The notes under the pieces are model-generated. The model saw nothing but the letters and a program-made list of their open reading frames with translations, searched no databases and had not been told where the DNA came from. The position numbers and the translations under genes were made by a program. From contig CAZALT010000004.1 of NCBI GenBank assembly GCA_964485515.1, forward strand, positions 1-53,160: a DNA stretch of 53,160 nt, written 5' to 3'. The first letter of the stretch is position 1. Each line of letters opens with the position of its first letter. Source of the stretch: an uncultured Rhabdothermincola sp. GTDB taxonomy: Bacteria; Actinomycetota; Acidimicrobiia; Acidimicrobiales; Acidimicrobilacustridaceae. This document shows, in pieces, positions 11,114 to 48,976 of the stretch.

Positions 11114-11193
11114 TTCCGTCTTCGTGCTGATCGTCCTGGCCCCGGCACCCTTGAACCTCGGATCGGATCGGGGGAAGTGTCCTCTTGACTCAT

Positions 11194-11212
11194 GCAACCT
11201 ACGCAGTAGTAT
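11194..11212 (+). promoter_or_regulatory. Island operator/promoter motif, copy B (gCAACCTACgcaGTAGTAT) with -35 TTGACT at 11185-11190
   Basis: TTGACT-N16-TAGTAT geometry. 48 nt upstream of ATG 11260. Confidence 0.6.
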
Positions 11213-11259
11213 GTGACTATCGTCATCCGACCGATCAGGTTTTTCTAAGGGGGAACCGA

Positions 11260-12450
11260 ATGCACAGGGGAATCCGCTCCATAGGAGTGTTCGCAGTCGT
11301 CACACTCGGATTGCTGAGCGCATGCTCGTCATCCGACGATGACGCGAACACGAACACCACATCCGGTGGCGGGGGCAGCGTGGACATCGCCGACTCGCAG
11401 GCCAACGTCGATGCGATGCTCGCCGAACCGACCAACGTCGGGGTCACGGAACCGCTCGCCGAGGCACCGCCGACCGGCATCAAGGCCATCTACCTCCAGT
11501 GCCCCGTGCCGGAGTGCCAGACCTACGGCGACGGCGTCAACGCGGCGACCGATGCGCTCGGCTGGGAGTTGAGCCGCATCAACTTCGACCTCACGCCCGA
11601 GTCTGCTCAGGCCGCCTTCGACCAGGCGATCAACGAGGCGCCCGACGTCATCTACTCGGTGGCCGCCTCACCGACGTGGCTCGACGCCCAACGGCAGAAG
11701 GCCGAAGACGCGGGCATCGTGTTCATCGACTTCGCCAACGTCTACGAGGACGATCCGACCACGGCCGTCGGTGGCTTCGGCGATGCCGTCGCTCCGCCCG
11801 CCGGCCTCCTGCAGGGGGCGGACCACGTCCGCTTCATCGGCACGCAGATGGCGGACTACGCCATCGTCGAGACCGACGGCAACGTGAACGCCCTCGCCGT
11901 GTACATCCCGGACTTCCCGATCGGTGTCCCCCCGGCAGTCGGGTTCGCCGAGCGCCTTGAAGAGGTGTGCCCGGACACGTGCAAGAGCACCGACCTGCAG
12001 ATCTCGGCCACCGACATCGGATCCACGCTCCCGCAGAAGATCACGAGCGAGCTGCAGCGCGACCCGTCGATCAACTACTTGATGTTCATCTCCGGCAGCT
12101 TCGCCACCGGCGTCGTCACCGCGATCACGGATCTCGGCAAGCAGGACGATGTGAAGATCGTCGGCAACGCTCCGATCGTGACCAGCCTCGAAGAGATGGA
12201 CCGCGGTCCGGTCGAGCAGGCGTGGGTCGGCCTCAACGCCGAGCTGGTCGGTTGGCGCATGGTCGACATGAGCATCCGTGCCCTCCAGGGCGAGACCATC
12301 CCCGAGAAGCCGTCTGGTCCCGACGACACCTCGGCCGCCGCCTGGCCGCCCGTGCAGCTGCTCACGGCCGAGACCTACCCCGAGCCGGTTCCCTACGAGG
12401 GGCCCGAGGGCTACCAGGACATGTTCCTGGAGCTGTGGGGCATCAACTGA
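11260..12450 (+). CDS. ABC transporter substrate-binding lipoprotein, PBP type 1 (sugar/CUT2-like), paralog 1
   Basis: ORF 11185..12450 trimmed to ATG 11260 (SD AAGGGGGA). Signal plus lipobox GLLSACSS. PBP1-like alternating beta/alpha pattern. Two Cys pairs (CPVPEC, CPDTC). Clear paralog of 49273..50478. Confidence 0.85.
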   Translation: MHRGIRSIGVFAVVTLGLLSACSSSDDDANTNTTSGGGGSVDIADSQANVDAMLAEPTNVGVTEPLAEAPPTGIKAIYLQCPVPECQTYGDGVNAATDALGWELSRINFDLTPESAQAAFDQAINEAPDVIYSVAASPTWLDAQRQKAEDAGIVFIDFANVYEDDPTTAVGGFGDAVAPPAGLLQGADHVRFIGTQMADYAIVETDGNVNALAVYIPDFPIGVPPAVGFAERLEEVCPDTCKSTDLQISATDIGSTLPQKITSELQRDPSINYLMFISGSFATGVVTAITDLGKQDDVKIVGNAPIVTSLEEMDRGPVEQAWVGLNAELVGWRMVDMSIRALQGETIPEKPSGPDDTSAAAWPPVQLLTAETYPEPVPYEGPEGYQDMFLELWGIN

Positions 12451-12539
12451 AGTCCGTCCGGACACGCAGGTCGGGATCCAACCCGGCCTGCGTGGCCAGG
12501 ACCGCATTGCCCACACCGATCTGAGGGAGAACGCACGCC

Positions 12540-12761
12540 ATGACCGTCGACACCCGCCTCCACCTCACCGTGGATCCCGATCTCTGCCAGGGACATGCCC
12601 GCTGCTACGCGCTGGCTCCGGAGCTGTTCGACATCGACGACGTCGACGGGCACTCCCAAGCCAAACCCGGTCCCGTGCCGGTCGAGCTCGAGGCCAAGGC
12701 CGAGCTCGCTGTCCGAAGCTGCCCGGAACGGGCGATCAGCCTCAGCGGAGGCGAACGATGA
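12540..12761 (+). CDS. 3Fe-4S ferredoxin (P450 redox partner type)
   Basis: 73 aa. CQGHARC...CP cluster motif (DPDLCQGHARCYALAPELF ... SCPERAI). Confidence 0.85.
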   Translation: MTVDTRLHLTVDPDLCQGHARCYALAPELFDIDDVDGHSQAKPGPVPVELEAKAELAVRSCPERAISLSGGER

Positions 12762-12780
12762 GTGGGGAGACCGCACAGCC

Positions 12781-14082: not shown

Positions 14083-14346
14083 TCGAGGGCGACCCAGACC
14101 TGTCGCTGGGTCGTGTGGCCGGTGATTCCCCCCCGCTGGCCCCTCCAGGGGGTGGCCCCGATTCGGGCTGCCTCCTGGAGACCCTTACCTCACATCTCGA
14201 ACCGCTTGGGTCCCGGAGTCGAGGAGAAACCTTCGCCGGCAACCGAGGTCTGACGGGCGATGCCGATACAACCAAGACACCGGGCACGCGAGCAGGGAAG
14301 CGTGGTCGGACGGGGCAAGAACACCGCTGAGAGGATCGAGAAGCAC

Positions 14347-18619: not shown

Positions 18620-19675
18620 TCAGAGCGGGTAGCCGACGAGCAGGCTCCACGGGTCGTCGATGGTCGCGTCGGCGCCGATCTGCTCGCTGCACCACAGGCT
18701 GGTGCCGTCCTCCTGCTGCCAGGACCAAAGGCGCGAGGTCGACCGGGCGAGCGCGTGCTCGTCGGTGAACCCGATCGCACCGTGGAGCTGGTGGGCGGAG
18801 CGGGCGACGAGCGCGGCGCACTCGTTCGCCTGGACCTTCGCGGCGAGGGTCGCGATCTCCACGCCGGTCGCGTCGGCCCATCCCGGGCGGGTCAGCGCCG
18901 CGGCCGCGTCGACCGCGGTCGCGGCGGCCACGGTGATGGATGCCATCGCTGCAACGGTGTGTTGCACGACCTGGTAGCGGGCGAGCGGCTTGCCGAACTG
19001 CACCCGGCCCTGGACGTGGTCGATGGCGTGTTGGCAGGCGGTCTCGGCCGCTCCGACGATCATCGCGGCGCGCCCCAGGCGCGCCTGACGGGAGAGCTCG
19101 GTGAGGAGTGCGGGGTCGCATGACGCGACGGCGCTCGAACCGACGAGGAGATCGAGGTTCGCGGAGTCCCGTGGCTCGCCCGCCATGTTCGTGCCGGTCT
19201 GCCACGTGATCGACTGGGGATCGAGCTGGACGATGCGGCACGAGCCGTCCGCGTCCTGCGAGGCGATGACGAGGAGGTCGGCGGCGGCGCCCCACGGAAC
19301 CCGGGAGAGCGGTCCCGCGAGGTGCCAGCCGTCCTCGCCCTGCGACAGGCGCAGCGGAGATCGGGTGTAGGTCAGGGGCCCCGACGGCACGGTCACGCCG
19401 ACGGCGTGGAGCGCGAGCCCGGCGAGCCGGGTCTCGAGGAGGGGGATCGGGCTCGCCCCGGCGGCGACCATGCGCAGCGCCAGGAGGGCGTGCTCGATCT
19501 CGCCGTCACCCCCGTTGGCGGCGGCGGGCAGCGTCACGTGGGTGAGCCCCATCGACTCGACGTCGAGCCAAGCCTTCACGTCGAAGGCGGGAGCTGCGTT
19601 GAGCGCGATGCCGTGCGTCGGTGGTTCGAAGATGGCGGCGAGGGTCCCGCGCAGGAGGTCGAGGTCGTCGCTCAT
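18620..19675 (-). CDS. Acyl-CoA dehydrogenase family protein, beta-type subunit of a heteromeric pair
   Basis: ORF 18620..19954 trimmed to ATG 19675 (ATGA overlap with the upstream ACAD). ACAD C-terminal domain (FGKPLARYQVVQHTVAAMA, HQLHGAIGFTDEHAL) but a short, divergent N-terminal half. Confidence 0.8.
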   Translation of the reverse strand: MSDDLDLLRGTLAAIFEPPTHGIALNAAPAFDVKAWLDVESMGLTHVTLPAAANGGDGEIEHALLALRMVAAGASPIPLLETRLAGLALHAVGVTVPSGPLTYTRSPLRLSQGEDGWHLAGPLSRVPWGAAADLLVIASQDADGSCRIVQLDPQSITWQTGTNMAGEPRDSANLDLLVGSSAVASCDPALLTELSRQARLGRAAMIVGAAETACQHAIDHVQGRVQFGKPLARYQVVQHTVAAMASITVAAATAVDAAAALTRPGWADATGVEIATLAAKVQANECAALVARSAHQLHGAIGFTDEHALARSTSRLWSWQQEDGTSLWCSEQIGADATIDDPWSLLVGYPL

Positions 19676-20841
19676 CGGAGCTCCAGCGACCGGGCGATGA
19701 GACCGCGGAGCACCTCGTTGGTGCCGCCGCGGATGGTGAAGCCGGGGGAGTGGAGCGTCGCCGACGCGAGCATGCGGGCGAGCGGGTCGTCGCTCGTCGG
19801 GTCGGCGGGGGTGTCGAGCACGGCGAGTGCCGCCTCGACGACGTCCTGCTCGAAGGTCGTGCCGAGGTCCTTGACCAGCGCGGCCGCGACCATCGGTGCC
19901 TCGCCCTTGCCGAGCGCCCCGGCGATCGCTAGGGAGAGCTGGCGAAGGGTCCACAGCCGGGCGACCAGCGCGCCGACCACGGGCCGCAGGGCGCGGCCGA
20001 CCTCATCGTCGGTCGCGCCTCGGGCCGCCATCTCGGCGAGGAGGGGGTAGGTGCTGAGGAAGCGCTCCGGCCCGCTGCGCTCGTAGGCGAGCTCGGACGT
20101 GACCTGGCTCCAGCCGTCGCCCACCCCCCCGAGGACCTGATCGTCGGGGACGAAGACGTCGTCGAACACGACCTCGTTGAAGTGGTGAGCGCCGGTCAGC
20201 AGCCGGATCGGGTTGATGGTCACACCCGCGGCCGGGAGGTCCACGACGAACTGGCTCAGACCGGCGTGCCGGGGACCGTCGCCGACGGAAGCCGACCGCG
20301 CGAGCACGACGATGGCAGCGCACTCGTGGGCGCCGCTCGTCCAGACCTTCGTGCCGTCGAGGCGCCAGCCGCCGTCGACCCTGGTTGCCTTCGTCCGCAC
20401 GGCAGCGAGGTCCGATCCGGCGTCGGGCTCGCTGAGGCCGATGGCGAAGTAGCAGGTGCCGGCGACGATGCCGGGCAGGTAGCGGTCCTGGAGGTGCGCC
20501 GTACCGTGCTTGAGGAGCGCCGGGGCGATCTGCCGATCAGAGAACCAATGGGCGGCGACCGGCGCTCCGGCAGCGAGCAGCTCCTCGATCACGACGTAGC
20601 GATCGAGCGGGCTGTGGCCGTGGCCGCCGTGCTCGACCGGGATGGTCATGCCGATCCAGCCGCGAGCCGCGAGCGCCTGGCTGAACGCCGGATCCCAACC
20701 AGCGAGCCACGCGTCGACGCGAGGTGTGAACTGCCCGCTCGCCCGCGCCTCGGCGAGGAACGAGCGCACGTCAGCACGGAGATCCCAGGTCGACTCGTCG
20801 AGGGGGTTGGGGACCGGGACGAGCGTCGAGAGGTCAGGCAC
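19672..20841 (-). CDS. Acyl-CoA dehydrogenase, alpha-type subunit
   Basis: 389 aa. GWIGMTIPVEHGGHG, FAIGLSEPDAGSD, KVWTSGAH, IRGGTNEVLRGLIA. GTG start overlapping the upstream hydratase stop by 8 nt. Confidence 0.9.
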   Translation of the reverse strand: MPDLSTLVPVPNPLDESTWDLRADVRSFLAEARASGQFTPRVDAWLAGWDPAFSQALAARGWIGMTIPVEHGGHGHSPLDRYVVIEELLAAGAPVAAHWFSDRQIAPALLKHGTAHLQDRYLPGIVAGTCYFAIGLSEPDAGSDLAAVRTKATRVDGGWRLDGTKVWTSGAHECAAIVVLARSASVGDGPRHAGLSQFVVDLPAAGVTINPIRLLTGAHHFNEVVFDDVFVPDDQVLGGVGDGWSQVTSELAYERSGPERFLSTYPLLAEMAARGATDDEVGRALRPVVGALVARLWTLRQLSLAIAGALGKGEAPMVAAALVKDLGTTFEQDVVEAALAVLDTPADPTSDDPLARMLASATLHSPGFTIRGGTNEVLRGLIARSLELR

Positions 20842-22447: not shown

Positions 22448-23644
22448 TCAGATCGTCAGGTTCTCGATGAGCGTGGCGTTGGCCATGCCAGTGCCTTCGC
22501 ACATGACTTGGAGGCCGTAGCGGTTGCCCTCGGCGACGAGGTTGTGCACGAGCGTCCCCATGAGGCGGGTGCCCGACGCGCCGAGCGGGTGGCCGAGGGC
22601 GATGGCCCCGCCGAGCGGGTTGACCCGGTTGTCATCGATGCCGAACTCGCGCTGCCAGGCGAGCGGGATCGAGGCGAAGGCCTCGTTCACCTCGAACTGG
22701 GCGATGTCGTCGAGACGGACCCCGCTCGACGCGAGGATCTTCTCCGTCACCGGGATCGGACCGGTAAGCATCAGGATCGGGTCGGAACCGCACACGGCGA
22801 ACGAGTGGAACCGTGCGAGCGGTCGGAGGTCGAGCGCGGCGGCGCGCTCGGCGCTCATGATGAGCATGGCGCTGGCGCCGTCGGCGAACTGGGAGGAGTT
22901 GCCGGCGGTGACGCTCCAGCTGATCTCCGGGAAGCGGGCGGCCATCTCGTCGTCCTCGAACGACGGGTTGAGGCCGCGGAGTCGCTCGGTGGTGGTGCCG
23001 GCCCGGATCGTCTCGTCGTGCTCGACGCGCACGGCCCCGTCTTCGCCCGGCACGAAGATCGGCGTGATCTCCCTGGCGAACCGACCGCTCGTCGCGGCGT
23101 CGTCGGCTCGGGCGTGGGACCGGGCGGCGAAGTCGTCCATCTCGGAGCGGGAGATGTCCCATCTGGCGGCGATGAGCTCCGCGGCGATTCCCTGGGACAC
23201 CAGTCCGGGCGCGTACCGCGCCTCGACGGAGGGGCCAAACGGATCGACCCCCATGCGAGCGAGTCCCATGGGTACCCGGCTCATCGATTCGAGTCCGCCG
23301 ACGACGGCGACGTCGTAGGCGCCGGCCATGATCGCCTGGGCGCCGAAGTGGGCGGCCTGCTGGCTCGATCCGCAACGGCGATCGATCGTGACGGCCGGGA
23401 CGTGCTCGGGTCCGTCGGCGGCGAGCCAGGCCGCTCGGCCGGGGCAACCAGCCTGATCCTTGGCCTGGCTGACGCACCCGATGAGGACGTCATCGACGGT
23501 TCCCGGGTCGATTCCGGTGCGGTCGAGGAGCGAGCGGATGGTCTGGGCGAGGAGCTCGACCGCGTGCAGACCAGAGAGGGCGCCACCCGGCTTTCCCCGT
23601 CCCATGGGGGATCGGACGGCCTCCACGATCACGGCTTCGGTCAT
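22448..23644 (-). CDS. Thiolase (acetyl-CoA C-acyltransferase)
   Basis: 398 aa. Nucleophile region RRCGSSQQA, NEAFAS, GGAIALGHPLGASG, C-terminal CEGTGMA. SD GAGGAG. Confidence 0.95.
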   Translation of the reverse strand: MTEAVIVEAVRSPMGRGKPGGALSGLHAVELLAQTIRSLLDRTGIDPGTVDDVLIGCVSQAKDQAGCPGRAAWLAADGPEHVPAVTIDRRCGSSQQAAHFGAQAIMAGAYDVAVVGGLESMSRVPMGLARMGVDPFGPSVEARYAPGLVSQGIAAELIAARWDISRSEMDDFAARSHARADDAATSGRFAREITPIFVPGEDGAVRVEHDETIRAGTTTERLRGLNPSFEDDEMAARFPEISWSVTAGNSSQFADGASAMLIMSAERAAALDLRPLARFHSFAVCGSDPILMLTGPIPVTEKILASSGVRLDDIAQFEVNEAFASIPLAWQREFGIDDNRVNPLGGAIALGHPLGASGTRLMGTLVHNLVAEGNRYGLQVMCEGTGMANATLIENLTI

Positions 23645-23678
23645 GTTTCGGGCTCCTCAACTGATTCTGGACAGTTCA

Positions 23679-23697
23679 GTCATACCAAGTAGGATGT
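23679..23697 (-). promoter_or_regulatory. Island operator motif, copy C (weaker; plus-strand gtcATACcaaGTAGGatgt)
   Basis: Core ATAC-N3-GTAG, about 12 of 17 defined consensus positions. Sits between the divergent thiolase (start 23644) and ACAD (start 23799). Confidence 0.4.
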
Positions 23698-23798
23698 TTT
23701 CTGCCAAGTCGAAAGTTGGCCGCTCGCGACGCTCGCGACACCTCGCGCTGCCGCCAGCCGTTGTCCGATCGCTCGCCGCTGATCACCGGGAGATGCAC

Positions 23799-24980
23799 AT
23801 GTCCATGTATTGGGAACCGAAGCTCGACGACGTCGGCGTGAAGTGGCGAGATCTCGCCGAGCAGCTCACCGCCGACGTGTTCGCACCTCGAGCGGCCGAG
23901 CTCGACCTTGAGGGCCGCTATCCGTGGGACAGCGTGGCGCTCCTCGTCGAGAGCGGCCTGGCCGCTCCCTTCGTGCCGGTCGAGTACGGCGGCCACGGCT
24001 TGCCGCTGACCGCCGTGTGCGCCGTTGCCGAAGCCGTATCACGCGGGTGCGCCTCGACCGGCGCCATCCTGAGCGCCTACGCCCTGGGTGCGGTCCCGAT
24101 CATCCTCGCCGGCACCGACGAGCAGAAGGCCGCGTACCTCGGCGAGGTCGTCCGCGGCAACGCCGTCAGCTTCGCCCTCACCGAGGTCGGCGCCGGCAGC
24201 GATGCCTCGGCCATCAAGACCACGGCCGTACCCGAAGGCGGCGGCTGGCGCATCCGCGGCGAGAAGATCTACATCGGCAATGGCGGTGCCTCGAAGTACT
24301 ACATCGTCTTCGCCCGCATCGAGGAAGGCGAGGGAGCAGGGAAGCTCACGGCGTTCTTCGTCGAGAAGGACACGCCCGGCGTGGTCATCGATCGGCTCGA
24401 AGAGAAGATGGGCATCCGCGGCACGATGACCAGCAACCTCAAGCTCGACACCGTCGTGCCCGACGACGCCATCCTCGGCGAGCGGGGCAAGGGCCTGCGC
24501 CTCGCGCTGCAGACCCTCAACCTCGGCCGCATCTCGGTGGCCGCCCAGTCGACCGGGGTCGGCCTCGCCGCGCTCGACGCCGCCGTGGCCGAGGCCTCAC
24601 GACGCTCGACCTTTGGCACGCCGATCATCCAGCACCAGGGCATCGGCTTCCGCCTGGCCGACGCGGCCACGCAGCTCACGCTCGCCCGCATGGTCACCTA
24701 TGAAGCGGCGGCGACCTACGACAACGGCGGCGACGTGTCGATCCTCGGCGCGATGGCCAAGCTCCACGCCAGCGAGGCCGCCCACTTCGCCGCCGACGCC
24801 GCGGTCCAGGTCTTCGGCGGCGACGGCTACTGCCAGCCCTGCATCGCCGAACGCCTCTACCGCGACCAGCGCGTGCTCGAGATCTACGAAGGCACATCGG
24901 AGATCCAGCGCGTCGTGATCTCCCGGCGGCTGCAGGTCGACGCCGACAAGCAGCGCGAGGCCGCCCTCGTCGAGAGCTGA
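23799..24980 (+). CDS. Acyl-CoA dehydrogenase (canonical MCAD/SCAD-type)
   Basis: ORF 23460..24980 trimmed to ATG 23799 (three in-frame ATGs at 23793/23799/23805; GGGAG at 23788-23792). FALTEVGAGSDA, IYIGNGG, EIYEGTSEIQRVVI. Confidence 0.9.
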   Translation: MSMYWEPKLDDVGVKWRDLAEQLTADVFAPRAAELDLEGRYPWDSVALLVESGLAAPFVPVEYGGHGLPLTAVCAVAEAVSRGCASTGAILSAYALGAVPIILAGTDEQKAAYLGEVVRGNAVSFALTEVGAGSDASAIKTTAVPEGGGWRIRGEKIYIGNGGASKYYIVFARIEEGEGAGKLTAFFVEKDTPGVVIDRLEEKMGIRGTMTSNLKLDTVVPDDAILGERGKGLRLALQTLNLGRISVAAQSTGVGLAALDAAVAEASRRSTFGTPIIQHQGIGFRLADAATQLTLARMVTYEAAATYDNGGDVSILGAMAKLHASEAAHFAADAAVQVFGGDGYCQPCIAERLYRDQRVLEIYEGTSEIQRVVISRRLQVDADKQREAALVES

Positions 24981-25065: not shown

Positions 25066-25716
25066 CTACTTGGTCAGGCCGCCGACCACGAAGTTCGCCA
25101 TGGACTCGGCGATCTCCTGCTTGCGGGAGACGTCGCCGTCGACCCGCGGGTTGTACCAGACGCTCATCCAGTTGAGGGATCCGAGGACCGCCTTGGCGAG
25201 GATGCCGGCGTCGTTGCCCGCGAACTCGCCCGCCTCGATGCCCTGTGCGATGACGTCCTCGAAGCGCTCCTCGTAGTCGGCCCGCAGGGAGAAGACCTCG
25301 TCGATCTGCTCTTGGCGCGTGCGGCCCTCGCTCGCCAGGGTCATCTCCGCGTGCTGGACGGCGAGGCGCATGAAGCTGGTCTCGTTCATCATGAGCTCGG
25401 CGTGCGCCTCGGCCATAGCCCAGAGGCGCTCCCGGGGCGAGGCCGGTCCGCTGGTGTAGGGGGTCACGGCATCGATGGCGAGCTCGAGCGCGCGGCGATG
25501 GATGCCGACGAAGATCTCGCCCTTGGTGCGGAAGTAGTGGTACACCCGGCCCTTGGTGGCGCCGAGGCGGTCGGCGATGTCGTCGATGGAGGTTGCGGCG
25601 TAGCCACGCGTGGTGAACGCCTCGGCCGCGGCGGTGAGCACGGCGTTGCGGCCGGCCGACTGGCGGTCGGACAGGGCGGTTCGGGACTCAGAGTCGGTCT
25701 TGGCTGGGGGAACCAC
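25066..25716 (-). CDS. TetR/AcrR-family transcriptional regulator
   Basis: 216 aa, GTG start. HTH block ILTAAAEAFTTRGYAATSIDDIADRLGATKGRVYHYFRTKGEIF. Confidence 0.9.
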   Translation of the reverse strand: MVPPAKTDSESRTALSDRQSAGRNAVLTAAAEAFTTRGYAATSIDDIADRLGATKGRVYHYFRTKGEIFVGIHRRALELAIDAVTPYTSGPASPRERLWAMAEAHAELMMNETSFMRLAVQHAEMTLASEGRTRQEQIDEVFSLRADYEERFEDVIAQGIEAGEFAGNDAGILAKAVLGSLNWMSVWYNPRVDGDVSRKQEIAESMANFVVGGLTK

Positions 25717-25829
25717 GGAATACCTCGTTCGGGGGAGTCTGGACCCGGTGTCGGCGGGTCCGGTGGGGCGTCAGGAGCTGATGGCAGCGTGCAATCGTCA
25801 GAGAGGTCGGATCCGCCGCCGCCGGGGCG

Positions 25830-25848
25830 ATACTACTAAGTCGGTTGA
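25830..25848 (-). promoter_or_regulatory. Island operator/promoter motif, copy D (plus-strand ATACTACtaAGTcGGTTGA)
   Basis: One mismatch to consensus. TAGTAT reads on the minus strand, 114 nt upstream of the tetR start. Confidence 0.55.
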
Positions 25849-25960: not shown

Positions 25961-25979
25961 CGAACCTACTCAGTAGTAT
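25961..25979 (+). promoter_or_regulatory. Island operator/promoter motif, copy E (cgAACCTACTcaGTAGTAT)
   Basis: Opposed to copy D in the same divergent region. The TAGTAT hexamer (25974-25979) overlaps ATG 25978. Confidence 0.6.
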
Positions 25980-26778
25980 GTACTCGCTCACCTGGGGAGA
26001 GATCTTGGATTACAAGCGCTTCGAGCCCACCCTGACCGTCGAGGTGGACGGACCGGTCCGCATCGTCACCCTCAACCGCCCCGACGACCTGAACTCGGTC
26101 GACGACGCCCTCCACAACGGCCTGCGCCGGGTGTGGGACGCGCTGATCGACGACGAGGAGGCCGAAGCTGTCGTCATCACCGGGGCGGGCCGTGCGTTCT
26201 GCTCGGGTGGCTACCTCCCGAACTTCGCCCGCAACCACACCGACGTCGTCGCCCGCCGCAAGGACATCCGCGAGGCTGAACGCCTCGTGAAGGCCATGCT
26301 CGAGTGCGAGCTGCCGATCGTCGCCGCGGTGAACGGTCCCGCCGTCGGACTCGGCTGCTCGCTCGCCGCCATGTCCGACATCGTCGTCATGGCCGATGAC
26401 ACGTTCATGTCCGACCCGCACGTGAGCGTCGGCCTCGTCGCCGGCGACGGCGGGCCGCTCGCCTGGCCGTTCATGATGAGCCTGCTCAAGGCCAAGGAGT
26501 ACATCCTGCTCGGCGATCGGATCCCCGCGGACGAGGCACTGCGCCTCGGGCTCGCCAACCGGCTCGCCCCGCGCGACGAGGTCGTCGCCCAGGCCACCGC
26601 GCTGGCTCATCGCCTCGCCGCCCAGCCCACGCAGGCGCTGCGCGACACCAAGCGGTCGCTCAACCTCGCCCTCATCCAGGCCGCGAACCTCATCATGCCG
26701 TTCGCCCTGGCCACCGAAGGCGACTCCTTCGGCACCGAAGATGTGCGGCGCAAGGTCGACGAGTTCTTCAACAAATGA
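25978..26778 (+). CDS. Enoyl-CoA hydratase/isomerase family
   Basis: ORF 25900..26778. VRIVTLNRPDDLNS, FCSGG, VNGPAVGLGCSLAAMSD. The first ATG (25978) lies inside the -10-like TAGTAT. An alternative TTG at 26005 is preceded by GGGGAGAG and would give MDYKRFEPTLTVEVDG... Confidence 0.85.
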   Translation: MYSLTWGEILDYKRFEPTLTVEVDGPVRIVTLNRPDDLNSVDDALHNGLRRVWDALIDDEEAEAVVITGAGRAFCSGGYLPNFARNHTDVVARRKDIREAERLVKAMLECELPIVAAVNGPAVGLGCSLAAMSDIVVMADDTFMSDPHVSVGLVAGDGGPLAWPFMMSLLKAKEYILLGDRIPADEALRLGLANRLAPRDEVVAQATALAHRLAAQPTQALRDTKRSLNLALIQAANLIMPFALATEGDSFGTEDVRRKVDEFFNK

Positions 26779-27888: not shown

Positions 27889-27902
27889 GAGGCAGCAGCA
27901 CC

Positions 27903-31001: not shown

Positions 31002-31031
31002 CTGCATGCCTTTCGGTCCGGTGTCAGAAAC

Positions 31032-31050
31032 ATCCTGCCCAGTAGGTTGA
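31032..31050 (-). promoter_or_regulatory. Island operator motif, copy F (plus-strand ATcCTgCccAGTAGGTTGA)
   Basis: Two mismatches. Sits between the divergent SDR (start 31001) and the ACAD pair (start 31235). Confidence 0.5.
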
Positions 31051-31234
31051 CATTTTGTGTCGCCGCGACGCAAGGTGTCGTTACTTGCCGAGCCCCCTCG
31101 CGGGCCGGACGGCCACGCGCTGGCACACCGCCATCGCCGGCCGACGAACGAAGGGTCGCCACTCCGCTCGACGGACGAGGCGGCCGACACCACACCGAAC
31201 GACAGGCCACCGGCCGACAAAGAGGGTGAACGAC

Positions 31235-32263: not shown

Positions 32264-32264
32264 C

Positions 32265-33407
32265 ATGGATCTGCGAGACAGCCCTGAGCAAGCCGAGTTC
32301 CGAGCCCGCCTCCGCGAGTGGCTCGACGAGAACCTCCCCAGCGAGCCCGAGCCCGAACACCTGGCCGAGCGCTTCGCCTTCATGGTCGCCTGGCAGCAGG
32401 CGCTCTATCGAGGCGGGTGGGTCGCGCTGTCGTGGCCGACCGAGTACGGCGGTCAGGGCCTGAGCGTCCTCGAGGAGGCCATCCTCAACGAGGAGCTCGG
32501 CCGGGCCGGTGCGCCGACGTCGCTCCCGCTCAACTACCTCGGTCGCCCGCTCCTCACGCACGGCACCGAAGAGCAGCGGTCGCGCTACCTGCCCGATCTC
32601 TTGTCGGCGGAGACCATCTGGTGCCAGGGCTTCTCCGAGCCCGGCGCGGGATCGGACCTCGCGTCCTTGCGCACCAAGGCCACTCCCGCGGATGACGCCG
32701 AGGGCGGCTGGGTCATCTCCGGCCAGAAGCTCTGGACGAGCTTCGGCGCGTTCGGCGACATGTGCCTCCTCCTGGCGCGCACTTCCAACCAGGGTCCGAA
32801 CTACGAAGGGATCTCGGCGTTCGTGGTCCCGATGGACGCCGAGGGCGTCACGGTGCGTGCGGTGGTCATGGGCAACGGCGACGCCGAGTTCGCCGAGATC
32901 TTCCTCGACGACGTCAAGGTCGGGCCGGACGCGCTGCTCGGCGAGCTGGGCGACGGATGGGCCATCGCCCAGGCGACCATCAGCTACGAGCGCGGTGCGG
33001 TCGACATCGGCTACCAGGCGAAGTTCACCCGCATGTACGCCGAGCTCGTCGCCGAGGTGGCGGAGCGCGCCGTCGACGACGTCGGCATCCGGCGCCGACT
33101 CGGTGAGGTGGCTACCTACCTCGAAGTTCTGCGCATGCACAGCCTGCGTCGCCTCTCGGCCCGCACGGACGGGTCGCTGCCGGGCCCGGAGAGCTCGGTC
33201 GACAAGCTGCTCATGACCCGCGTGGAGCAGCTGCTGCTCGAGACGGCGATGGACCTGTGCGACGACCACCTCGGTGGGCGACGATCCGCGTGGTTCGACC
33301 GCTACCTCTATGCCCGGTCCGGGAGCATCTACGGCGGGTCGGCCCAGATCCAGCGCAACATCTTGGCGCTGCGCGTCCTCGGCATGCGCGTCAAGAAGGC
33401 CGCCTGA
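32265..33407 (+). CDS. Acyl-CoA dehydrogenase, alpha-type subunit
   Basis: ORF 31311..33407 trimmed to ATG 32265 (1 nt after the previous stop, SD GAGGAG). WPTEYGGQG, FSEPGAGSDLAS, KLWTSFG, IYGGSAQIQRNILA. Confidence 0.9.
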   Translation: MDLRDSPEQAEFRARLREWLDENLPSEPEPEHLAERFAFMVAWQQALYRGGWVALSWPTEYGGQGLSVLEEAILNEELGRAGAPTSLPLNYLGRPLLTHGTEEQRSRYLPDLLSAETIWCQGFSEPGAGSDLASLRTKATPADDAEGGWVISGQKLWTSFGAFGDMCLLLARTSNQGPNYEGISAFVVPMDAEGVTVRAVVMGNGDAEFAEIFLDDVKVGPDALLGELGDGWAIAQATISYERGAVDIGYQAKFTRMYAELVAEVAERAVDDVGIRRRLGEVATYLEVLRMHSLRRLSARTDGSLPGPESSVDKLLMTRVEQLLLETAMDLCDDHLGGRRSAWFDRYLYARSGSIYGGSAQIQRNILALRVLGMRVKKAA

Positions 33408-34288: not shown

Positions 34289-34390
34289 CGTCTCACCGGC
34301 CGGTTGCCGTCGCGAACGGTGATCGGCCGTGGCCTGTTCGGCGTGGCCACGAGGGCTGGTGAAGAACTCGGCGGGTGTCTGGACATTCAA

Positions 34391-34409
34391 AGCACCTACT
34401 CAGTAGTAT
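34391..34409 (+). promoter_or_regulatory. Island operator/promoter motif, copy G (agcACCTACTcaGTAGTAT) with TGGACA at 34380-34385
   Basis: TGGACA-N18-TAGTAT. 49 nt upstream of ATG 34458. Confidence 0.6.
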
Positions 34410-34457
34410 GTGACCGACGACGCACAGGGGTGTGCCCGTCGTGAAGGGGAATCGCAC

Positions 34458-37813: not shown

Positions 37814-38863
37814 ATGGCATCACGTCTGGAGTTCGGACTCGCCGGCCTCGCCGCGCAGGACCCGACGACCGACCGGCACGGCGCCAACGCCGCGCTGCGC
37901 ACCGTCGTCCGAGCGGCTCGCGTCGCGGACCAGCACGGCTTCGACGCCGTCTGGACCTCGGAGCACCACGGTGCGCCCGACGGCTTCATCCCCGCCCCGA
38001 TGGTCCTGCTCAGCGCGCTGTCCCAGGCGACCGAACGAGTTCGCCTCGGCACCAACGTGATCGTCGCTCCCGTGTGGGATCCGATCCGACTCGCCGAGGA
38101 GACGGCGATCGTCGACCAGCTGAGCGGCGGGCGCGTCGACCTCGGCCTGGGCATCGGGTACATGGAGCACGAGTTCCGCGCCCTCGGCGCGCCGTACAAG
38201 GAACGGGCTCGATCGTTGGAATTGTCGGTGGCGCTCCTGCGGTCGGCGTGGGCGGGTGAGCCGCTCTCGGGGCTCGGAACGATGGATGCCGACGAGGCCA
38301 TCCGCGTGACGCCGCAGCCCCTGCAGGTGCCCGGTCCGCCCATCCTGCTGGGCGGCTTCGTCCGGACGGCGGTGCTGCGGGCTCGACGGCTCGGCCAGGG
38401 CTACCTCGGCCCGACCGTCGATCCCTCCGGCCTTGCCGAACGCATCGGTTGGCTCCTCGAGGACGGGCCGCTGCCCGGGTTCAGCGTGTCGGTCACCGCG
38501 TTCGCGTTCGTGTCGGCTGACGGCCAGGCGCCGCCGTCTCCTCCCGGAGCGGGATCGACCGGCGGTCACAACTTCGCCGCGCCACGACCTGATGGCGCCG
38601 GCAGCGCGGTCAACGTCGTCGGCACGCCCGACGATGCGGTCCGAGCCTTGACGCCGTTCGTCGAGCTGTTCGCCACCGTGCCCGACGACATGCCGGCCCA
38701 CCTCTGCATGTGCCTCCTCCAACCGACGGCCTCGGAGGCGGACAACCTCGAATCCGTGCGGTTGTTCGGCGACGAAGTGATCCCCGCGCTGCGCGAGATC
38801 GCGGCCGCAGGCTCGTCGGACCCGTCGGACCCGTCGCCCCCAGCCGGGACGGCAGCGGCATGA
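37814..38863 (+). CDS. LLM-class flavin/F420-dependent oxidoreductase
   Basis: 349 aa. GFDAVWTSEHHG, GTNVIVAPVWDPIRLAEE, SGGRVDLGLGIGY. Confidence 0.85.
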   Translation: MASRLEFGLAGLAAQDPTTDRHGANAALRTVVRAARVADQHGFDAVWTSEHHGAPDGFIPAPMVLLSALSQATERVRLGTNVIVAPVWDPIRLAEETAIVDQLSGGRVDLGLGIGYMEHEFRALGAPYKERARSLELSVALLRSAWAGEPLSGLGTMDADEAIRVTPQPLQVPGPPILLGGFVRTAVLRARRLGQGYLGPTVDPSGLAERIGWLLEDGPLPGFSVSVTAFAFVSADGQAPPSPPGAGSTGGHNFAAPRPDGAGSAVNVVGTPDDAVRALTPFVELFATVPDDMPAHLCMCLLQPTASEADNLESVRLFGDEVIPALREIAAAGSSDPSDPSPPAGTAAA

Positions 38864-40050
38864 CGGACGAGATCCTCGGACACCGGGACCGCTGTGCCAT
38901 CGCGGGCATCGGCACGACCGACTACTCGAAGGCGTCGGCCCGTTCCGAGCTGACGCTCGCCACGCAGGCCTCGCTCGCCGCACTCGACGACGCTGGGTTG
39001 ACGGCGGCCGACATCGACGGGGTCGTGCGCTGCGACCTCGACCGGGTGGCCCCCAACGACCTCGCCCACTCGCTCGGCATCCCGAACCTCACCTACTGGG
39101 GGACGACCACAACCGGCGGCGGTGCCCCCTGTGGCATGGTCGGCCAGGCCATCGGCGCGATCCTCTCCGGTCAGGCCACCGCGGTGATCGTGTACCGGGC
39201 GCTCAACGGGCGATCCGGTCAGCGCTACGGCCGGGGCGAGATCTCCGATGTGCCCGTCGGCGGCGGCGGGACCTACGACGAGTTCTTCGTGCCCTACGGC
39301 CTGGTTGCACCCGGGCAGATGTGGGCGATGCTCGCCCAGCGTCACGCCCACGAGTTCGGCACGACCGCCGAGCAGCTCGGTGCCGTCGCGCTGGCCTGCC
39401 GCACGCAGGCCAACCACAACCCCGGGGCGATGATGCACGATCGCCCGCTCGACCTGGAGACCTACCTCGCGTCGCGGATGATCTCGGCGCCGCTCCGGCT
39501 GTTCGACTACTGCCTCGAGACCGACGGCGCGTGTGCGGTCATCGTCACCACCGCGGAGCGAGCCCGCGACCTGCGCCAGCCCCCCGCGCTCATCCGAGGG
39601 GTCGCGCAGGGCATCCCCGCCGATCCGCAGGGCGGCGTCACCTACCCGTCGCTGATGCGCGAGAGCCTCACGTCTCTGCCATCGGCCGCGGTCGCCAAGA
39701 CGCTCTACGCCCGTGCCGGTGTCGGCCCAGAGGACATCGACACCGCGCAGTTCTACGACTGCTTCACGCCGACCGTGATCTTCCAGCTCGAGGACTACGG
39801 GTTCTGTGCGAAGGGGGAGGGCGGTCCCTTCGCGGCGAGCGGCGCCATCGACCGGGGCGGTTCGCTGCCCGTCAACACCAGTGGAGGCAACATGTCCGAC
39901 GGCTACATCCACGGCCTCAACCACGTCGTCGAAGGCGTGCGTCAGATCCGCGGCACCTCGACCGGGCAGGTGCCCGACGCCGAGACGTGCCTGGTCACCT
40001 CCGGCCTGCCCCTCCCGTCCAGCGCCCTGATCCTGCGAGGCGATCGCTGA
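38860..40050 (+). CDS. Thiolase-like protein, SCP-x / lipid-transfer (Ltp) type
   Basis: ORF 38710..40050 trimmed to ATG 38860 (ATGA overlap). IAGIGTTDYSK, FYDCFTPTVIFQLEDYGFCAKGEG, NTSGGNMSDGYIHGLNHVVEGVRQIRG. Confidence 0.85.
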   Translation: MTDEILGHRDRCAIAGIGTTDYSKASARSELTLATQASLAALDDAGLTAADIDGVVRCDLDRVAPNDLAHSLGIPNLTYWGTTTTGGGAPCGMVGQAIGAILSGQATAVIVYRALNGRSGQRYGRGEISDVPVGGGGTYDEFFVPYGLVAPGQMWAMLAQRHAHEFGTTAEQLGAVALACRTQANHNPGAMMHDRPLDLETYLASRMISAPLRLFDYCLETDGACAVIVTTAERARDLRQPPALIRGVAQGIPADPQGGVTYPSLMRESLTSLPSAAVAKTLYARAGVGPEDIDTAQFYDCFTPTVIFQLEDYGFCAKGEGGPFAASGAIDRGGSLPVNTSGGNMSDGYIHGLNHVVEGVRQIRGTSTGQVPDAETCLVTSGLPLPSSALILRGDR

Positions 40051-40451
40051 TGGCCGGCAGCGCGCCGATCCCCGTCATCGACGATGCGGACACCGGGGGC
40101 TTCTTCGCTGGGGCCGCCGCCCACGAGGTGCGGCTGTCCTTCTGCGCCGACTGCGACGCCGTGCTCCACCTGCCCACGGCGTACTGCCACCGCTGCGGCA
40201 GCTGGTCGACCGAGTGGCGGGCGGTGGCACCGACCGGAACGCTCTTCACGTTCACGATCATCGAGCACCAGGTGCATCCCGCGTTCCCGGCACCGCACGC
40301 CATCGTGCTCATCAGCCTCGATGAGGTTCCCGACGCTCGCCTGCTCGGTCACGTCGCCGGTCGCCCCGATCTCACGATCGGCATGGCGATGGAGGCGTAC
40401 TTCGAATCGCACGGTTCTGCGACCGTCCCCAACTGGCGGCCGCGATCGTGA
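40050..40451 (+). CDS. DUF35 OB-fold / zinc-ribbon protein (thiolase partner)
   Basis: ORF 39321..40451 trimmed to ATG 40050 (1-nt overlap). Zn ribbon CADCDAVLHLPTAYCHRCGS followed by an OB-like segment GTLFTFTIIEHQ. Confidence 0.85.
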   Translation: MAGSAPIPVIDDADTGGFFAGAAAHEVRLSFCADCDAVLHLPTAYCHRCGSWSTEWRAVAPTGTLFTFTIIEHQVHPAFPAPHAIVLISLDEVPDARLLGHVAGRPDLTIGMAMEAYFESHGSATVPNWRPRS

Positions 40452-42690: not shown

Positions 42691-42797
42691 TCAGCCGGCG
42701 GTCGTGATCATCGGCGGTCGTGCTCAGTCGGCGGTCGTGCTCATCGGCGGTCGTGCTCAGTCGGCGGTCGTGCTCATCGGCGGTCGTGCTCAGTCGG
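42691..42797. repeat. Tandem repeat, 33-bp period (17+16-bp subunits) x 3.2
   Basis: tcagNcggcggtcgtgc / tcatcggcggtcgtgc alternate from 42691. The last partial unit contains the stop codon (42790-42792) of the minus-strand gene 42790..43095. Confidence 0.9.
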
Positions 42798-43095
42798 AGG
42801 AGGGGAGCGGCTTGGCCGACTTGAGCCCGACCGTCCGGCCGTCGGCGACGAGCGTGCCGGGCCCACTCGCGGAGCAGAGGAGCTCGAGCCCGCTGTCGGG
42901 GTCCTCGTAGCGCTTGCCGACGAGCAGCTCACCCGTGAGCTCCTCGGCGGCAGTGGCCGACGGCGTGTCGGCGCCGACCTCGCTGAGCGCCGCGCCGCCA
43001 CAGGTGAGATCGATCGGCTCGCCCGGCGCCCGCACCACGATCACCTGGGCGCTCGAACCGGGGCACGCCAATCTCGATCCGGGTTTCAGTTCCAT
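42790..43095 (-). CDS. Small hypothetical protein (101 aa) with an internal duplication of a degenerate zinc-ribbon-like unit
   Basis: ATG 43095 with AGGAG 10 nt upstream. Repeats LKPGSRLACPGSSAQVIVVRAPGEPIDLTCGGAAL and LLVGKRYEDPDSGLELLCSASGPGTLVADGRTVGL. Driven by motif copy H. Confidence 0.55.
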   Translation of the reverse strand: MELKPGSRLACPGSSAQVIVVRAPGEPIDLTCGGAALSEVGADTPSATAAEELTGELLVGKRYEDPDSGLELLCSASGPGTLVADGRTVGLKSAKPLPSSD

Positions 43096-43155
43096 CTGGG
43101 GATGCTCCTGGGAAGGTAGGCCTGCGAGGGGACCAGTCGGGTCTTGCCGAGAGGC

Positions 43156-43174
43156 ATACTACCTAGTAGGTTGA
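43156..43174 (-). promoter_or_regulatory. Island operator/promoter motif, copy H (perfect; plus-strand ATACTACctAGTAGGTTGA)
   Basis: Minus-strand reading is TTGCGT(43183-43178)-N16-TAGTAT(43161-43156). Sits between the divergent small gene (start 43095) and the P450 (start 43253). Confidence 0.6.
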
Positions 43175-43252
43175 ATCACGCAAAAGCCGCGAAGTTGCCG
43201 TCCTGGGGACCCTGGGGCCGGGCTTCGGACGTCATGGGGGTGCACACAGCAC

Positions 43253-45507: not shown

Positions 45508-45516
45508 CCAACCCAC

Positions 45517-45611: not shown

Positions 45612-45673
45612 AACGACCCGTTCTGGCGTACGTCGCCGTCGTGGACCGACGGCGACGAACGCAATTTGGGTGG
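45612..45673. repeat. 62-nt hairpin element, copy 2 (stem 45626-45641 / 45647-45662, one A.A mismatch, loop TGGAC)
   Basis: Near-identical to copy 1 (1-nt indel and about 3 substitutions), 95 nt downstream. Both lie between the convergent SDR (stop 45507) and hydratase (stop 45693). Confidence 0.85.
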
Positions 45674-45692
45674 TGGGGAGGTCTGGGGTGGA

Positions 45693-46454: not shown

Positions 46455-46490
46455 GTGATGTCCTCCAGGATCCGAGCGGTTGGGCTTGGG

Positions 46491-47660
<1,170 letters not shown>

Positions 47661-47700
47661 GGGGAAGGCCTCACTTCAGGGGAGCGACTGGTGACGCGAG

Positions 47701-47719
47701 ATACTACCCAGTAGGTTGT
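47701..47719 (-). promoter_or_regulatory. Island operator/promoter motif, copy I (plus-strand ATACTACccAGTAGGTTGt)
   Basis: One mismatch. Minus-strand TAGTAT lies 41 nt upstream of the thiolase ATG 47660. The racemase gene is divergent. Confidence 0.6.
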
Positions 47720-47780
47720 GCACGTGCCCGTCGAGCGCTGTCTCGCCGGGACGGTTCGAGCACGCGTCGAGGGGATGTCG

Positions 47781-48917
47781 ATGGGACCGCTGTCGGGAAT
47801 CAAGGTCGTCGAGCTGGCCGGGCTGGGACCCGCGCCGTTCGGCACGATGATGCTGGCCGACCTCGGTGCCGACGTGATCCGCATCGACCGCGCCGGAGCC
47901 GTGGGCGGCGACGACACGAACGCGAAGCTCGACCTGCTCAACCGCGGGCGTCGCTCCATCGGCGTCGACCTCAAGTCACCCGAAGGCATCGCCGTGGTCC
48001 TCGACCTCGTCGCCACAGCCGACGTCCTCGTCGAGGGGTTCCGGCCCGGCGTCATGGAACGCCTCGGCCTCGGACCCGACGTGTGCACCGAGCGCAACGA
48101 GCGCCTCGTCTACGCCCGCATGACCGGCTGGGGCCAAGACGGTCCCAACGCCAAGGACGCCGGCCACGACATCAACTACATCGCCGTCGCCGGCGCGCTC
48201 GAACCGGTGGGCCGATTCGGCGAGCAGCCCACGCCACCGCTCAACCTCGTCGGCGACTTCGGCGGGGGAGGGATGCTCCTCGCTATGGGCGTGTGTGCCG
48301 CGCTGCTCGAGACCGCCCGCTCCGGCCAGGGCCAGGTCATCGACGTCGCCATGGTCGACGGCGCCGCGTCGCTGATGACCATGATCTGGTCGTTCCGCGA
48401 GATGGGCATCTGGGACGACGTGCGCGGCACCAACACGTTGGACTCGGGCGCGCACTTCTACGACACCTACGAGACGGCCGACGGGACGTACGTCGCCCTC
48501 GGGTCGGTCGAGCCGCAGTTCTACGCCGAGGTGCTCCGGGTGCTGGAGCTCGACCCCGACGAGTTCCCGCAGAACGACCGTGCGCGGTGGCCCGACCTGA
48601 AGCAGCGCGTGGCCGACGTGTTCCGGACCCGGACGCGGGCGGAGTGGTGCGAACGCTTCGAGGGCCACGACGCCTGCTTCTCGCCGGTGCTGTCGATCGC
48701 GGAGACCCCGACGCATCCGCACATGGCGCACCGCGGCACGTTCACCGAGGTCGACGGCATCCTCCAGCCCGGGCCGTCACCGCGCTTCGCCCGCACCCCC
48801 GGTTCGATCGAGCGCCCACCGCCCGGGCCCGGCGAGCACACCGACGAGGTCCTCGCCCAGCTCGGCCTCTCGGCCGAGCGGATCGCCGAGCTCCGGCGCG
48901 CCAACGCCATCGCGTGA
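47781..48917 (+). CDS. mcr: Alpha-methylacyl-CoA racemase (family III CoA-transferase fold)
   Basis: ORF 47718..48917. ATG 47781 (MGPLSG...) follows GAGGGG; ATG 47775 is also possible. MGPLSGIKVVELAGLGPAPFGTMMLADLGADVIRIDR, YARMTGWGQDGP, GHDINYIA, PPLNLVGDFGGGG, EPQFYAE, NDRARWPDL closely track mycobacterial MCR as I remember it. Confidence 0.9.
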   Translation: MGPLSGIKVVELAGLGPAPFGTMMLADLGADVIRIDRAGAVGGDDTNAKLDLLNRGRRSIGVDLKSPEGIAVVLDLVATADVLVEGFRPGVMERLGLGPDVCTERNERLVYARMTGWGQDGPNAKDAGHDINYIAVAGALEPVGRFGEQPTPPLNLVGDFGGGGMLLAMGVCAALLETARSGQGQVIDVAMVDGAASLMTMIWSFREMGIWDDVRGTNTLDSGAHFYDTYETADGTYVALGSVEPQFYAEVLRVLELDPDEFPQNDRARWPDLKQRVADVFRTRTRAEWCERFEGHDACFSPVLSIAETPTHPHMAHRGTFTEVDGILQPGPSPRFARTPGSIERPPPGPGEHTDEVLAQLGLSAERIAELRRANAIA

Positions 48918-48928
48918 GAATTTTCCCA

Positions 48929-48947
48929 GGAACCTACTACTGAGTAT
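48929..48947 (+). promoter_or_regulatory. Island operator motif, copy J1 (weaker; ggAACCTACTacTGAGTAT)
   Basis: Left half perfect, right half 5 of 7. It abuts the -35 TTGACA of the J2 promoter. Confidence 0.4.
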
Positions 48948-48957
48948 CTTGACATCA

Positions 48958-48976
48958 GGTCCGTACTGGGTAGTAT
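48958..48976 (+). promoter_or_regulatory. Island operator/promoter motif, copy J2 (ggtCCgTACTggGTAGTAT) with -35 TTGACA at 48949-48954
   Basis: TTGACA-N16-TAGTAT. About 297 nt upstream of ATG 49273. Confidence 0.6.

Follow-up and report, generated by a model that had tools for sequence, protein, structure and literature searches.

We analysed a 53,160-nucleotide stretch of DNA from an uncultured Rhabdothermincola sp. (contig CAZALT010000004.1, hereafter the window), in which ten copies of a 20-bp box are dispersed through a lipid-type catabolic gene island. We propose, with a probability of roughly 0.8, that these boxes are operators of the island's own TetR repressor (25066-25716, minus strand), a paralogue of the regulator DarR that reads the same type of site. 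The box has the consensus AACCTACTnnGTAGTATGTn, with the core cTACT-N4-AGTAT and the symmetry TAC-N6-GTA. A preliminary description of this DNA had taken the element for the dispersed operator of a local regulon, had named the same TetR as the candidate binder and had thought the element possibly undescribed. The first two of these views are supported by the results below, with TetR remaining the best candidate, whereas the third is not.

The boxes are abundant in the window far beyond expectation and are confined to intergenic regions. The core CTAC-N3-GTAG occurs five times (0.02 expected), and the 19-mer consensus given in the preliminary description occurs eight times at up to three mismatches, against none in 100 shuffles. 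A position weight matrix (PWM) was built from the strong sites, and the box was scored with it as a 20-mer in bits. The scan recovered all ten sites that had been reported, with nothing further above 13 bits in the window; at 8 bits or more it matched 20 intergenic positions and no genic one, with 47,369 of the 53,141 scanned positions lying in genes. The strands first given for two copies described as weaker had to be exchanged, since box B scores better on the plus strand and box I on the minus strand. The boxes and the gene of the proposed repressor are as follows.

11196 to 11215, plus strand: box A, AACCTACGCAGTAGTATGTG, 32.2 bits, upstream of a unit of solute-binding protein (SBP) and P450 genes.
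23679 to 23698, plus strand: box B, GTCATACCAAGTAGGATGTT, 13.4 bits, between a thiolase gene (22448-23644, minus) and a divergent acyl-CoA dehydrogenase (ACAD) gene (23793-24980, plus).
25827 to 25846, minus strand: box C, AACCGACTTAGTAGTATCGC, 26.2 bits, facing the tetR gene and proposed as its autoregulatory site.
25963 to 25982, plus strand: box D, AACCTACTCAGTAGTATGTA, 35.4 bits, facing an operon of enoyl-CoA hydratase (ECH), APH, ACAD and cyclase genes.
31029 to 31048, minus strand: box E, AACCTACTGGGCAGGATGTT, 27.2 bits, between an SDR gene (30243-31007, minus) and a divergent ACAD pair (31226-33407, plus).
34393 to 34412, plus strand: box F, CACCTACTCAGTAGTATGTG, 32.4 bits, upstream of an ABC ATPase/permease operon.
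43153 to 43172, minus strand: box G, AACCTACTAGGTAGTATGCC, 30.2 bits, between a small open reading frame (ORF; 42790-43095, minus) and a P450-ferredoxin unit (43253 onward, plus).
47698 to 47717, minus strand: box H, AACCTACTGGGTAGTATCTC, 32.5 bits, between a thiolase gene (46491-47660, minus) and a divergent family III CoA-transferase gene (47718 onward, plus).
48931 to 48950, minus strand: box I, AAGATACTCAGTAGTAGGTT, the second member of a tandem pair, scoring 28.4 bits on the minus strand and 18.4 on the plus strand.
48960 to 48979, plus strand: box J, TCCGTACTGGGTAGTATGTG, 25.4 bits, over the spacer and -10 of the putative promoter of an SBP-PhyH-SDR-SnoaL unit.
25066 to 25716, minus strand: tetR, encoding a putative DarR-like paralogue that is proposed to bind every box, with Pfam domains TetR_N and TetR_C_24.

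Sequence conservation beyond the 20 bp is low. It reaches 2-3 bp further to the right than the 19-mer (TAGTAT-GT), the two leftmost bases of which are weak. A search for weak boxes in the box-free gaps at 14.1, 37.1, 41.8, 45.6, 50.5 and 51.6 kb found none of at least 5 bits, and the PWM scan found no further boxes before 11 kb, where, as stated earlier, the half-site GTAGGTTGA is present at 1175-1183. A weak box-like sequence, AACCTGATCGGTCGGATGAC (11222-11241, minus strand, 8.9 bits), is the sole additional candidate; it is located 7 bp downstream of box A and within the likely 5' untranslated region of the first SBP gene, and may be a low-affinity auxiliary site or a chance occurrence.

Judged by its sequence, the box is the published operator of DarR and not a new element. 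DarR of M. smegmatis (MSMEG_5346) is a TetR repressor that was first found as a c-di-AMP receptor and that binds c-di-AMP and cAMP, with enhanced binding to DNA as the result (PMC10636190). The element ATACT-N4-AGTAT is common to its operators in the promoters of darR, Ms5347 and cspA (Zhang et al. 2013 as cited in Schumacher et al. 2023, PMC10636190). The supplement gives the native operators as GTAATACTCCGTAGTAT at Ms5347, GGGATACTACGGAGTAT at darR and GCAAGCCTACCGAGTAT at cspA, and DarR was crystallised on TAGATACTCCGGAGTATCTA as two interacting dimers (PMC10636190). With at most one mismatch, the DarR consensus ATACTNNNNAGTAT finds six of the ten window sites against 0.04 expected, and the Ms5347 operator core (TACTnnGTAGTAT / TACTNNGTAGTAT) finds eight of the ten against 0.01 expected. 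Boxes D and H each differ from the DarR consensus at a single position, and by direct reading all ten boxes match at least 8 of its 10 specified positions, box B doing so at 8 of the 10 positions of ATACT-N4-AGTAT. The left half of box I, AGATACT, is the left half of the crystallised DarR operator, and the first base is the sole difference between the Ms5347 operator ATACTCCGTAGTAT and the consensus of the window, cTACTnnGTAGTAT.

The symmetry of the box also had to be redrawn, since the preliminary description had given a 7-3-7 palindrome with CTAC-N3-GTAG at its core. We compared 54 sites, of which 10 are from the window, 26 from other actinobacteria and 18 are unique alphaproteobacterial sites. 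Numbered as in the 20-mer, the pairs that are consistently complementary are 3-18, 5-16, 6-15, 7-14 and 8-13, centred at 10.5, and the symmetric triplets are TAC at positions 5-7 and GTA at positions 14-16. In the Alphaproteobacteria the pairs 4-17 and 2-19 are complementary too, which yields the near-perfect palindrome AACATAC-N6-GTATGTT. The pair 4-14 of the earlier scheme is complementary in only 11% of alphaproteobacterial sites, and the true axis lies 1.5 bp to the right of that scheme's centre at position 9. CTAC-N3-GTAG is apparent because position 4 is C and not A in actinobacterial boxes, which also have an invariant inner G11-T12. In the DarR crystals, each subunit reads one TxC triplet, the T through Gly45 and, through Lys44, the G that faces the C; the outer pair of TAC and GTA is the one read in this way. 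A second dimer sits at a 3-bp offset, with the half-site T2-x-C4 engineered into the 'optimised' operator TTGCTACTCC and G11-x-A13 as its partner (PMC10636190). In the numbering of the crystallised 20-mer, the C4 and G11-T12-A13 of the box coincide with the half-sites of this second dimer, and the box may thus be read as four triplets, [A-C-C][T-A-C]Tnn[G-T-A][G-T-A].

The protein encoded at 25066-25716 is the single TetR of the window, the sole other regulator gene being PaaX-like (338-1108). Its best PDB relatives are the DarR chains 8SVD, 8SUA, 8SUK, 8SVA, 8T5Y and 8SV6 (E 1e-31 to 1e-34, 33-36% identity), followed by the next PDB family at E 2.5e-23. The DarR orthologues that have been studied are 82-84% identical among themselves (PMC10636190). 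In comparison with the clade of the window TetR, DarR has a median identity of about 35% to all 120 listed members, which are 42-100% identical to the window protein; the nearest named homologues are from Mycolicibacterium thermoresistibile (64%), M. elephantis (62%) and Cryptosporangium (62%). The DNA-contact residues T43, K44, G45, Y48, S53, K54 and K121 of DarR correspond to T54, K55, G56, Y59, T64, K65 and R132 of TetR, which therefore shares with DarR both base-reading residues (Lys44 and Gly45) and most of those that contact phosphate. Among 62 aligned clade members, with identity down to 42%, TKG is near-invariant and a few members have SKG.

The ligand side of the protein departs from DarR. 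The cyclic-nucleotide signature of DarR comprises W(X)6Q(X)7L plus Arg165 of the partner subunit. In TetR, Q184 is replaced by D, R165 by K, R179 by N and L192 by I, and a residue is inserted after W-Y-N, with W177 and Y178 kept; no Q stands at the signature position in any of the 62 aligned clade members. Five of the ten inducer-pocket residues differ, toward hydrophobic side chains (N97>L, H105>M, H109>V). Because the pocket is more hydrophobic and the anion-stabilising Arg135 and Tyr138 are kept, we propose an anionic lipid as the inducer. No NCBIfam equivalog model scored above its cut-off for TetR. Given the identity of 33-36% and the altered nucleotide-binding signature, we take the protein to be a DarR-like paralogue and not DarR itself.

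The box travels with this regulator in other genomes. We assembled 37 loci from Actinobacteria and Alphaproteobacteria, 33 by a genome-collection scan for TetR relatives and four by protein identity, and found a box of at least 17 bits within 300 bp upstream of the tetR orthologue in 20 of them (orthologues of 33-72% identity). Box density was 1.9 per kb upstream of tetR, 0.038 per kb elsewhere and zero in shuffled sequence. The taxa with this arrangement include M. elephantis, M. thermoresistibile, Cryptosporangium, a Nocardioidaceae metagenome-assembled genome (MAG) and many Rhodobacteraceae, where the association persists at 33-37% protein identity. Intergenic boxes also precede homologous units in the actinobacterial clusters, which are syntenic with the window. 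The orthologous ECH gene of M. elephantis, part of an ECH-APH-ACAD unit, is preceded by a box at the same place as box D (L001 15578), and the ACAD pair of the Nocardioidaceae MAG that is orthologous to the one at box E has a box at 12810 (L005). In M. thermoresistibile, a Jatrophihabitantaceae MAG and a JGI contig, boxes stand before CoA-transferase, luciferase-like, P450 and small-ORF genes; homologues of the small ORF next to box G have boxes before them in L037 and L040. Up to five intergenic boxes of at least 17 bits per 20 kb were present in M. elephantis, M. thermoresistibile, the Nocardioidaceae, the Jatrophihabitantaceae and the JGI contig, and one each in Cryptosporangium and contig L038.

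An independent scan of a metagenome collection with an exact pattern returned 105 contigs, 36 of them of high GC (G+C of at least 55%). Homologues of window genes were carried by 29 of these 36, and the TetR by 13; in 26 the box lay at most 300 bp outside a window-gene homologue, and in none did it lie inside a homologous coding sequence.

Some of these loci have features of their own. The marine Rhodobacteraceae carry a near-perfect palindrome of 18-20 bp, AACATACYnnGTAGTATGTT, that ends 2-113 bp (mostly 35-113 bp) upstream of a TetR of 33-37% identity and that conserves the inner GTA asymmetry as well; it was seen in L009, L010, L012, L017, L020, L022, L023, L025 and L027-L030, at about 9870-9990 in each and in L030 at 2760. 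In L020 the TetR gene heads an operon of tetR, a zinc alcohol dehydrogenase gene and a Liv-type ABC transporter. In L038 (4227-6134), a metagenomic cluster, the ECH gene beside tetR is truncated (148 aa) and followed by a DDE_3 transposase gene, which looks like an insertion sequence that entered the first operon of the regulon. One JGI contig (L039) has two paralogous TetRs of the clade, at 10001-10696 and 20122-20696, 10 kb apart in one box-rich cluster, where a single type of operator might serve both regulators.

With the box nearly identical to footprinted DarR operators, with the same base-reading residues in both proteins making cross-recognition chemically plausible, and with 53 kb as the visible genome, a canonical DarR encoded elsewhere might be the main protein on the boxes, placing them under c-di-AMP or cAMP control instead of, or besides, control by the local TetR. 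We consider this unlikely. The box is found directly upstream of orthologues of the local TetR, in the 20 of 37 loci that include alphaproteobacterial ones, and every multi-box cluster contains the clade of the local TetR, which is without the DarR nucleotide signature; a DarR orthologue was present in none of the loci fetched. These observations favor the local TetR as the protein that reads the boxes.

Overlap of the boxes with promoters had been claimed at four places. In the 40 kb that we scanned (11-51 kb) there are only four sigma-70-like matches, all with their -10 in the right half of a box, and these include three of the four claimed, at boxes A, F and J; the fourth, at box G, is visible in the sequence. 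The candidate promoters are as follows.

11185 to 11212, plus strand: promoter A, TTGACT-N16-TAGTAT, with the -35 at 11185-11190.
23668 to 23695, plus strand: promoter B, TGGACA-N16-TAGGAT, with the -35 at 23668-23673.
34380 to 34409, plus strand: promoter F, TGGACA-N18-TAGTAT, with the -35 at 34380-34385.
48949 to 48976, plus strand: promoter J, TTGACA-N16-TAGTAT, with 10 of 12 matches.
43183 to 43156, minus strand: promoter G, TTGCGT-N16-TAGTAT, with TTGCGT at 43178-43183, read directly from the sequence.

A -35 element at the correct spacing is thus present at five window sites. Across the 36 actinobacterial sites, TTGACA-like hexamers (at least 4 of 6 matches) lie 16-18 nt upstream of TAGTAT at nine, against two or three at control offsets. 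Boxes I and J, in tandem at the SBP promoter, span both the -35 and the -10, and box I abuts or overlaps the -35 TTGACA (48949-48954). In three orthologous loci (L002 9960, L005 9956, L037 3648) the start codon lies 6-9 nt past TAGTAT or TAGGAT, which is the geometry of leaderless actinobacterial mRNAs and would independently mark the hexamer as a -10.

We hypothesize that, without inducer, the TetR repressor would occupy the box. The box spans the spacer and the -10 hexamer (TAGTAT or TAGGAT) of what would be sigma-A-type promoters, and the tandem box of the SBP promoter reaches the -35, so we propose that RNA polymerase would be excluded; repression by occlusion of the polymerase is the likely mechanism. 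A pathway substrate or intermediate, probably an anionic lipid (a carboxylate or an acyl-CoA), would enter the C-terminal pocket and spread the helix-turn-helix domains, releasing the DNA and jointly derepressing uptake (two SBPs and an ABC transporter), P450 oxidation and the genes of beta-oxidation type, and box C would make the repressor autoregulated. We infer the binding, repression, stoichiometry and inducer of TetR in this scheme, as we do the -10 function of TAGTAT.

The same promoter features could be explained without any repressor, if the motif were a conserved promoter (an extended -10 plus spacer) for a dedicated sigma factor or an activator. Its right half, TAGTAT, fits the actinobacterial -10 (TANNNT) and lies in all four promoter-like matches, and the leaderless-like start codons of some orthologous loci agree with this explanation. 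We nevertheless find it very improbable, since the element is dyad-symmetric at the five pairs named above, matches a crystallographically defined repressor operator, becomes a near-perfect palindrome in the Rhodobacteraceae with no -35 at a workable distance, and occurs in both orientations relative to the downstream gene in co-directional regions.

Several observations weigh against our proposal that the boxes are promoter-embedded operators of the local TetR. Only about one site in four has a recognisable -35. Where an intergenic region is co-directional, the TAGTAT end points toward the downstream gene in five cases and away from it in four (box I, L001 10731, L040 8261 and L040 10892); TAGTAT is therefore not always the -10, and the opposite half, TAGGTT, also fits TANNNT. 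A rule that TAGTAT always faces the regulated gene, which held in the five cases and failed in the four, was dropped. The loop that makes the dimer-dimer contacts of DarR (116-125) is not conserved in TetR (A116>L, A119>E, L120>G and R125>E, in an alignment with indels), and the pair-of-dimers mode may not apply to it. A second DarR-type protein elsewhere in the genome could share or own the sites, the part seen being a 53-kb metagenomic contig. Finally, the 69 low-GC contigs matched in the metagenome scan are unrelated to the system and have almost no homologues of window genes as neighbours, and their number is consistent with chance for a collection of that size. These apparently unrelated matches are also what would speak for a reading of the sites as non-regulatory, either chance similarities or what remains of a mobile element or short dispersed repeat. 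That reading is effectively refuted by the absence of the 19-mer and core patterns from 100 shuffles, the exclusively intergenic sites and the boxes upstream of tetR orthologues; the low conservation outside the 20 bp and the boxes conserved before orthologous genes of other genera also speak against it.

In its logic the system resembles KstR and KstR2, in that one TetR repressor would act through many palindromic operators scattered among the promoters of a large catabolic island of lipid or steroid type, with P450s, alpha2beta2-type ACAD pairs, thiolases and ECHs among its genes. The operator sequences differ, however. The KstR and KstR2 consensus operators are TnnAACnnGTTnnA and AnCAAGnnCTTGnT, and the window contains no match to either pattern, in agreement with the preliminary description. 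The regulator is also much closer to DarR than to KstR2, which is a weaker PDB relative (E 6e-14), and by its operator and its DNA-reading residues the system groups with DarR. It shares with DarR the TetR fold of repressor and, if box C acts as proposed, an autoregulatory site upstream of the regulator's own gene. It differs from DarR in having ten boxes over 38 kb of the window as opposed to three known operators, in the C at box position 4, which is found in the engineered 'optimised' DarR operator in place of A, and in the changed signature, dimer-contact loop and half of the inducer pocket.

Fatty-acid-responsive regulators are more distant relatives of TetR, with the Thermus protein 3VPR at E 2.5e-23 and structures of Bacillus FadR (YsiA) at E 2e-8. 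Both are known for acyl-CoA-responsive control of beta-oxidation genes, and operators of the FadR and Thermus type are not known to be related to TAC-N6-GTA. The NCBIfam FadR model gives the window TetR 50.6 bits, far below its equivalog cut-off of 200. AcuR, the acrylate-responsive TetR of Rhodobacter, was considered because the Rhodobacteraceae operons of tetR, zinc alcohol dehydrogenase and Liv-type ABC transporter genes recall acuR-acuI, and was rejected for the window TetR at 32.1 bits against an NCBIfam cut-off of 247.

The window has a G+C content of 69.4%. Genes were called with a codon-usage map and families assigned with Pfam, which together place a lipid-type catabolic island over 11-53 kb, with a coding fraction of 0.91. 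Its transport genes encode two Peripla_BP_4 SBPs and the ABC ATPase/permease. The catabolic genes encode two P450s, one paired with a ferredoxin; seven ACADs, including two adjacent pairs; five ECHs; two thiolases, plus an SCP-x-type thiolase with a ChsH2-type OB-fold protein; CoA-transferases of both family I and family III; and a PaaK-like ligase, six SDRs, a PhyH dioxygenase, SnoaL-like proteins and a luciferase-like oxidoreductase. The structures nearest to the P450s are CYP125, CYP142, P450cin and CYP124, and the SBP at 11287-12450 has no PDB relative at E 1e-10 or below. The sequence is that of a metagenomic contig (Logan SRR16797979 and related runs). A plasmid identity was considered and rejected, a megablast search of PLSDB with 24 kb having returned short thiolase-gene matches only and no related record.

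In each ACAD pair (18620-20841 and 31226-33407) one member is without a Pfam match for the middle domain, as in alpha2beta2 ACADs, and at 38860-40451 the SCP-x-type thiolase adjoins the ChsH2-type zinc-ribbon/OB-fold protein. Such pairs, and the combination of an SCP-x thiolase with a ChsH2-type protein, are hallmarks of steroid or branched side-chain degradation. When the CYP125/142-like P450s, PhyH and a racemase-like CoA-transferase are considered as well, the substrate is suggested to be methyl-branched or steroid-like. At 26857-29180 an ACAD gene comes directly after a gene for an APH-type kinase, an arrangement also found in M. elephantis (L001 12477-14756; 68% and 85% identity), and 9609-10874 holds a second APH/EcKL-like gene.

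The small ORF at 42790-43095 (minus strand) has relatives at L040 2321-2626 and L037 3332-3652, all of 101-106 aa, with pairwise identities of 38-41% (E 1e-15 and 6e-25) and a conserved C-terminal PLP(S/A)SD. It has no Pfam or NCBIfam match, and in these three different clusters a box stands directly before it and P450 or ACAD genes adjoin it. A separate unit at 77-4323 has the PaaX-like regulator gene at its head, followed by P450, luciferase-like oxidoreductase and SDR genes. Its intergenic region holds only the left half-box AACCTAC (minus-strand reading, 1175-1183), and this could be what is left of a box that has decayed; alternatively, control of the unit may be of the PaaX type.

No new kind of regulatory element is revealed by this analysis. 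The regulon itself, with a DarR-like paralogue, ten boxes and about 40 genes, is new, as we found no description of it in the literature beyond the DarR papers. What the analysis provides is a sequence-level map of how a 40-kb island of about 40 genes is probably switched on as a single unit, through one repressor, ten operators and eight control regions. It ties the island to a regulator family with DNA-bound crystal structures, and so binding-site mutations, stoichiometry and inducer screens can be designed directly. It also widens the known range of the DarR-type box, from three operators described in a single species to a regulator-operator pair that is conserved across many Actinobacteria and marine Rhodobacteraceae.

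More tentatively, and with the odds somewhat against it, we speculate that a separate DarR-like clade spanning Actinobacteria and Alphaproteobacteria has kept the DNA-reading chemistry without the cyclic-nucleotide site and, in actinobacteria, serves as master regulator of an uncharacterised catabolic island for a methyl-branched, alicyclic or steroid-like lipid, whose natural operators, with a second register at a 3-bp offset, would make cooperative two-dimer binding native. The island would then be one of CYP125/142-like P450s, alpha2beta2-type ACAD pairs, the ChsH2-type protein with its SCP-x-type thiolase, PhyH, racemase-like CoA-transferases and dedicated ABC uptake. The natural operators here carry the 'optimised' fourth half-site, and if this speculation is true the second register (C4 and G11-T12-A13) would be a natural one, whereas Schumacher et al. 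engineered it into the M. smegmatis site. A sister clade to DarR that spans two phyla and is without a cyclic-nucleotide site bears on how DarR gained its second-messenger control, and would suggest, on the same condition, that the second-messenger response of DarR was a later addition to an ancestral lipid-sensing regulator.

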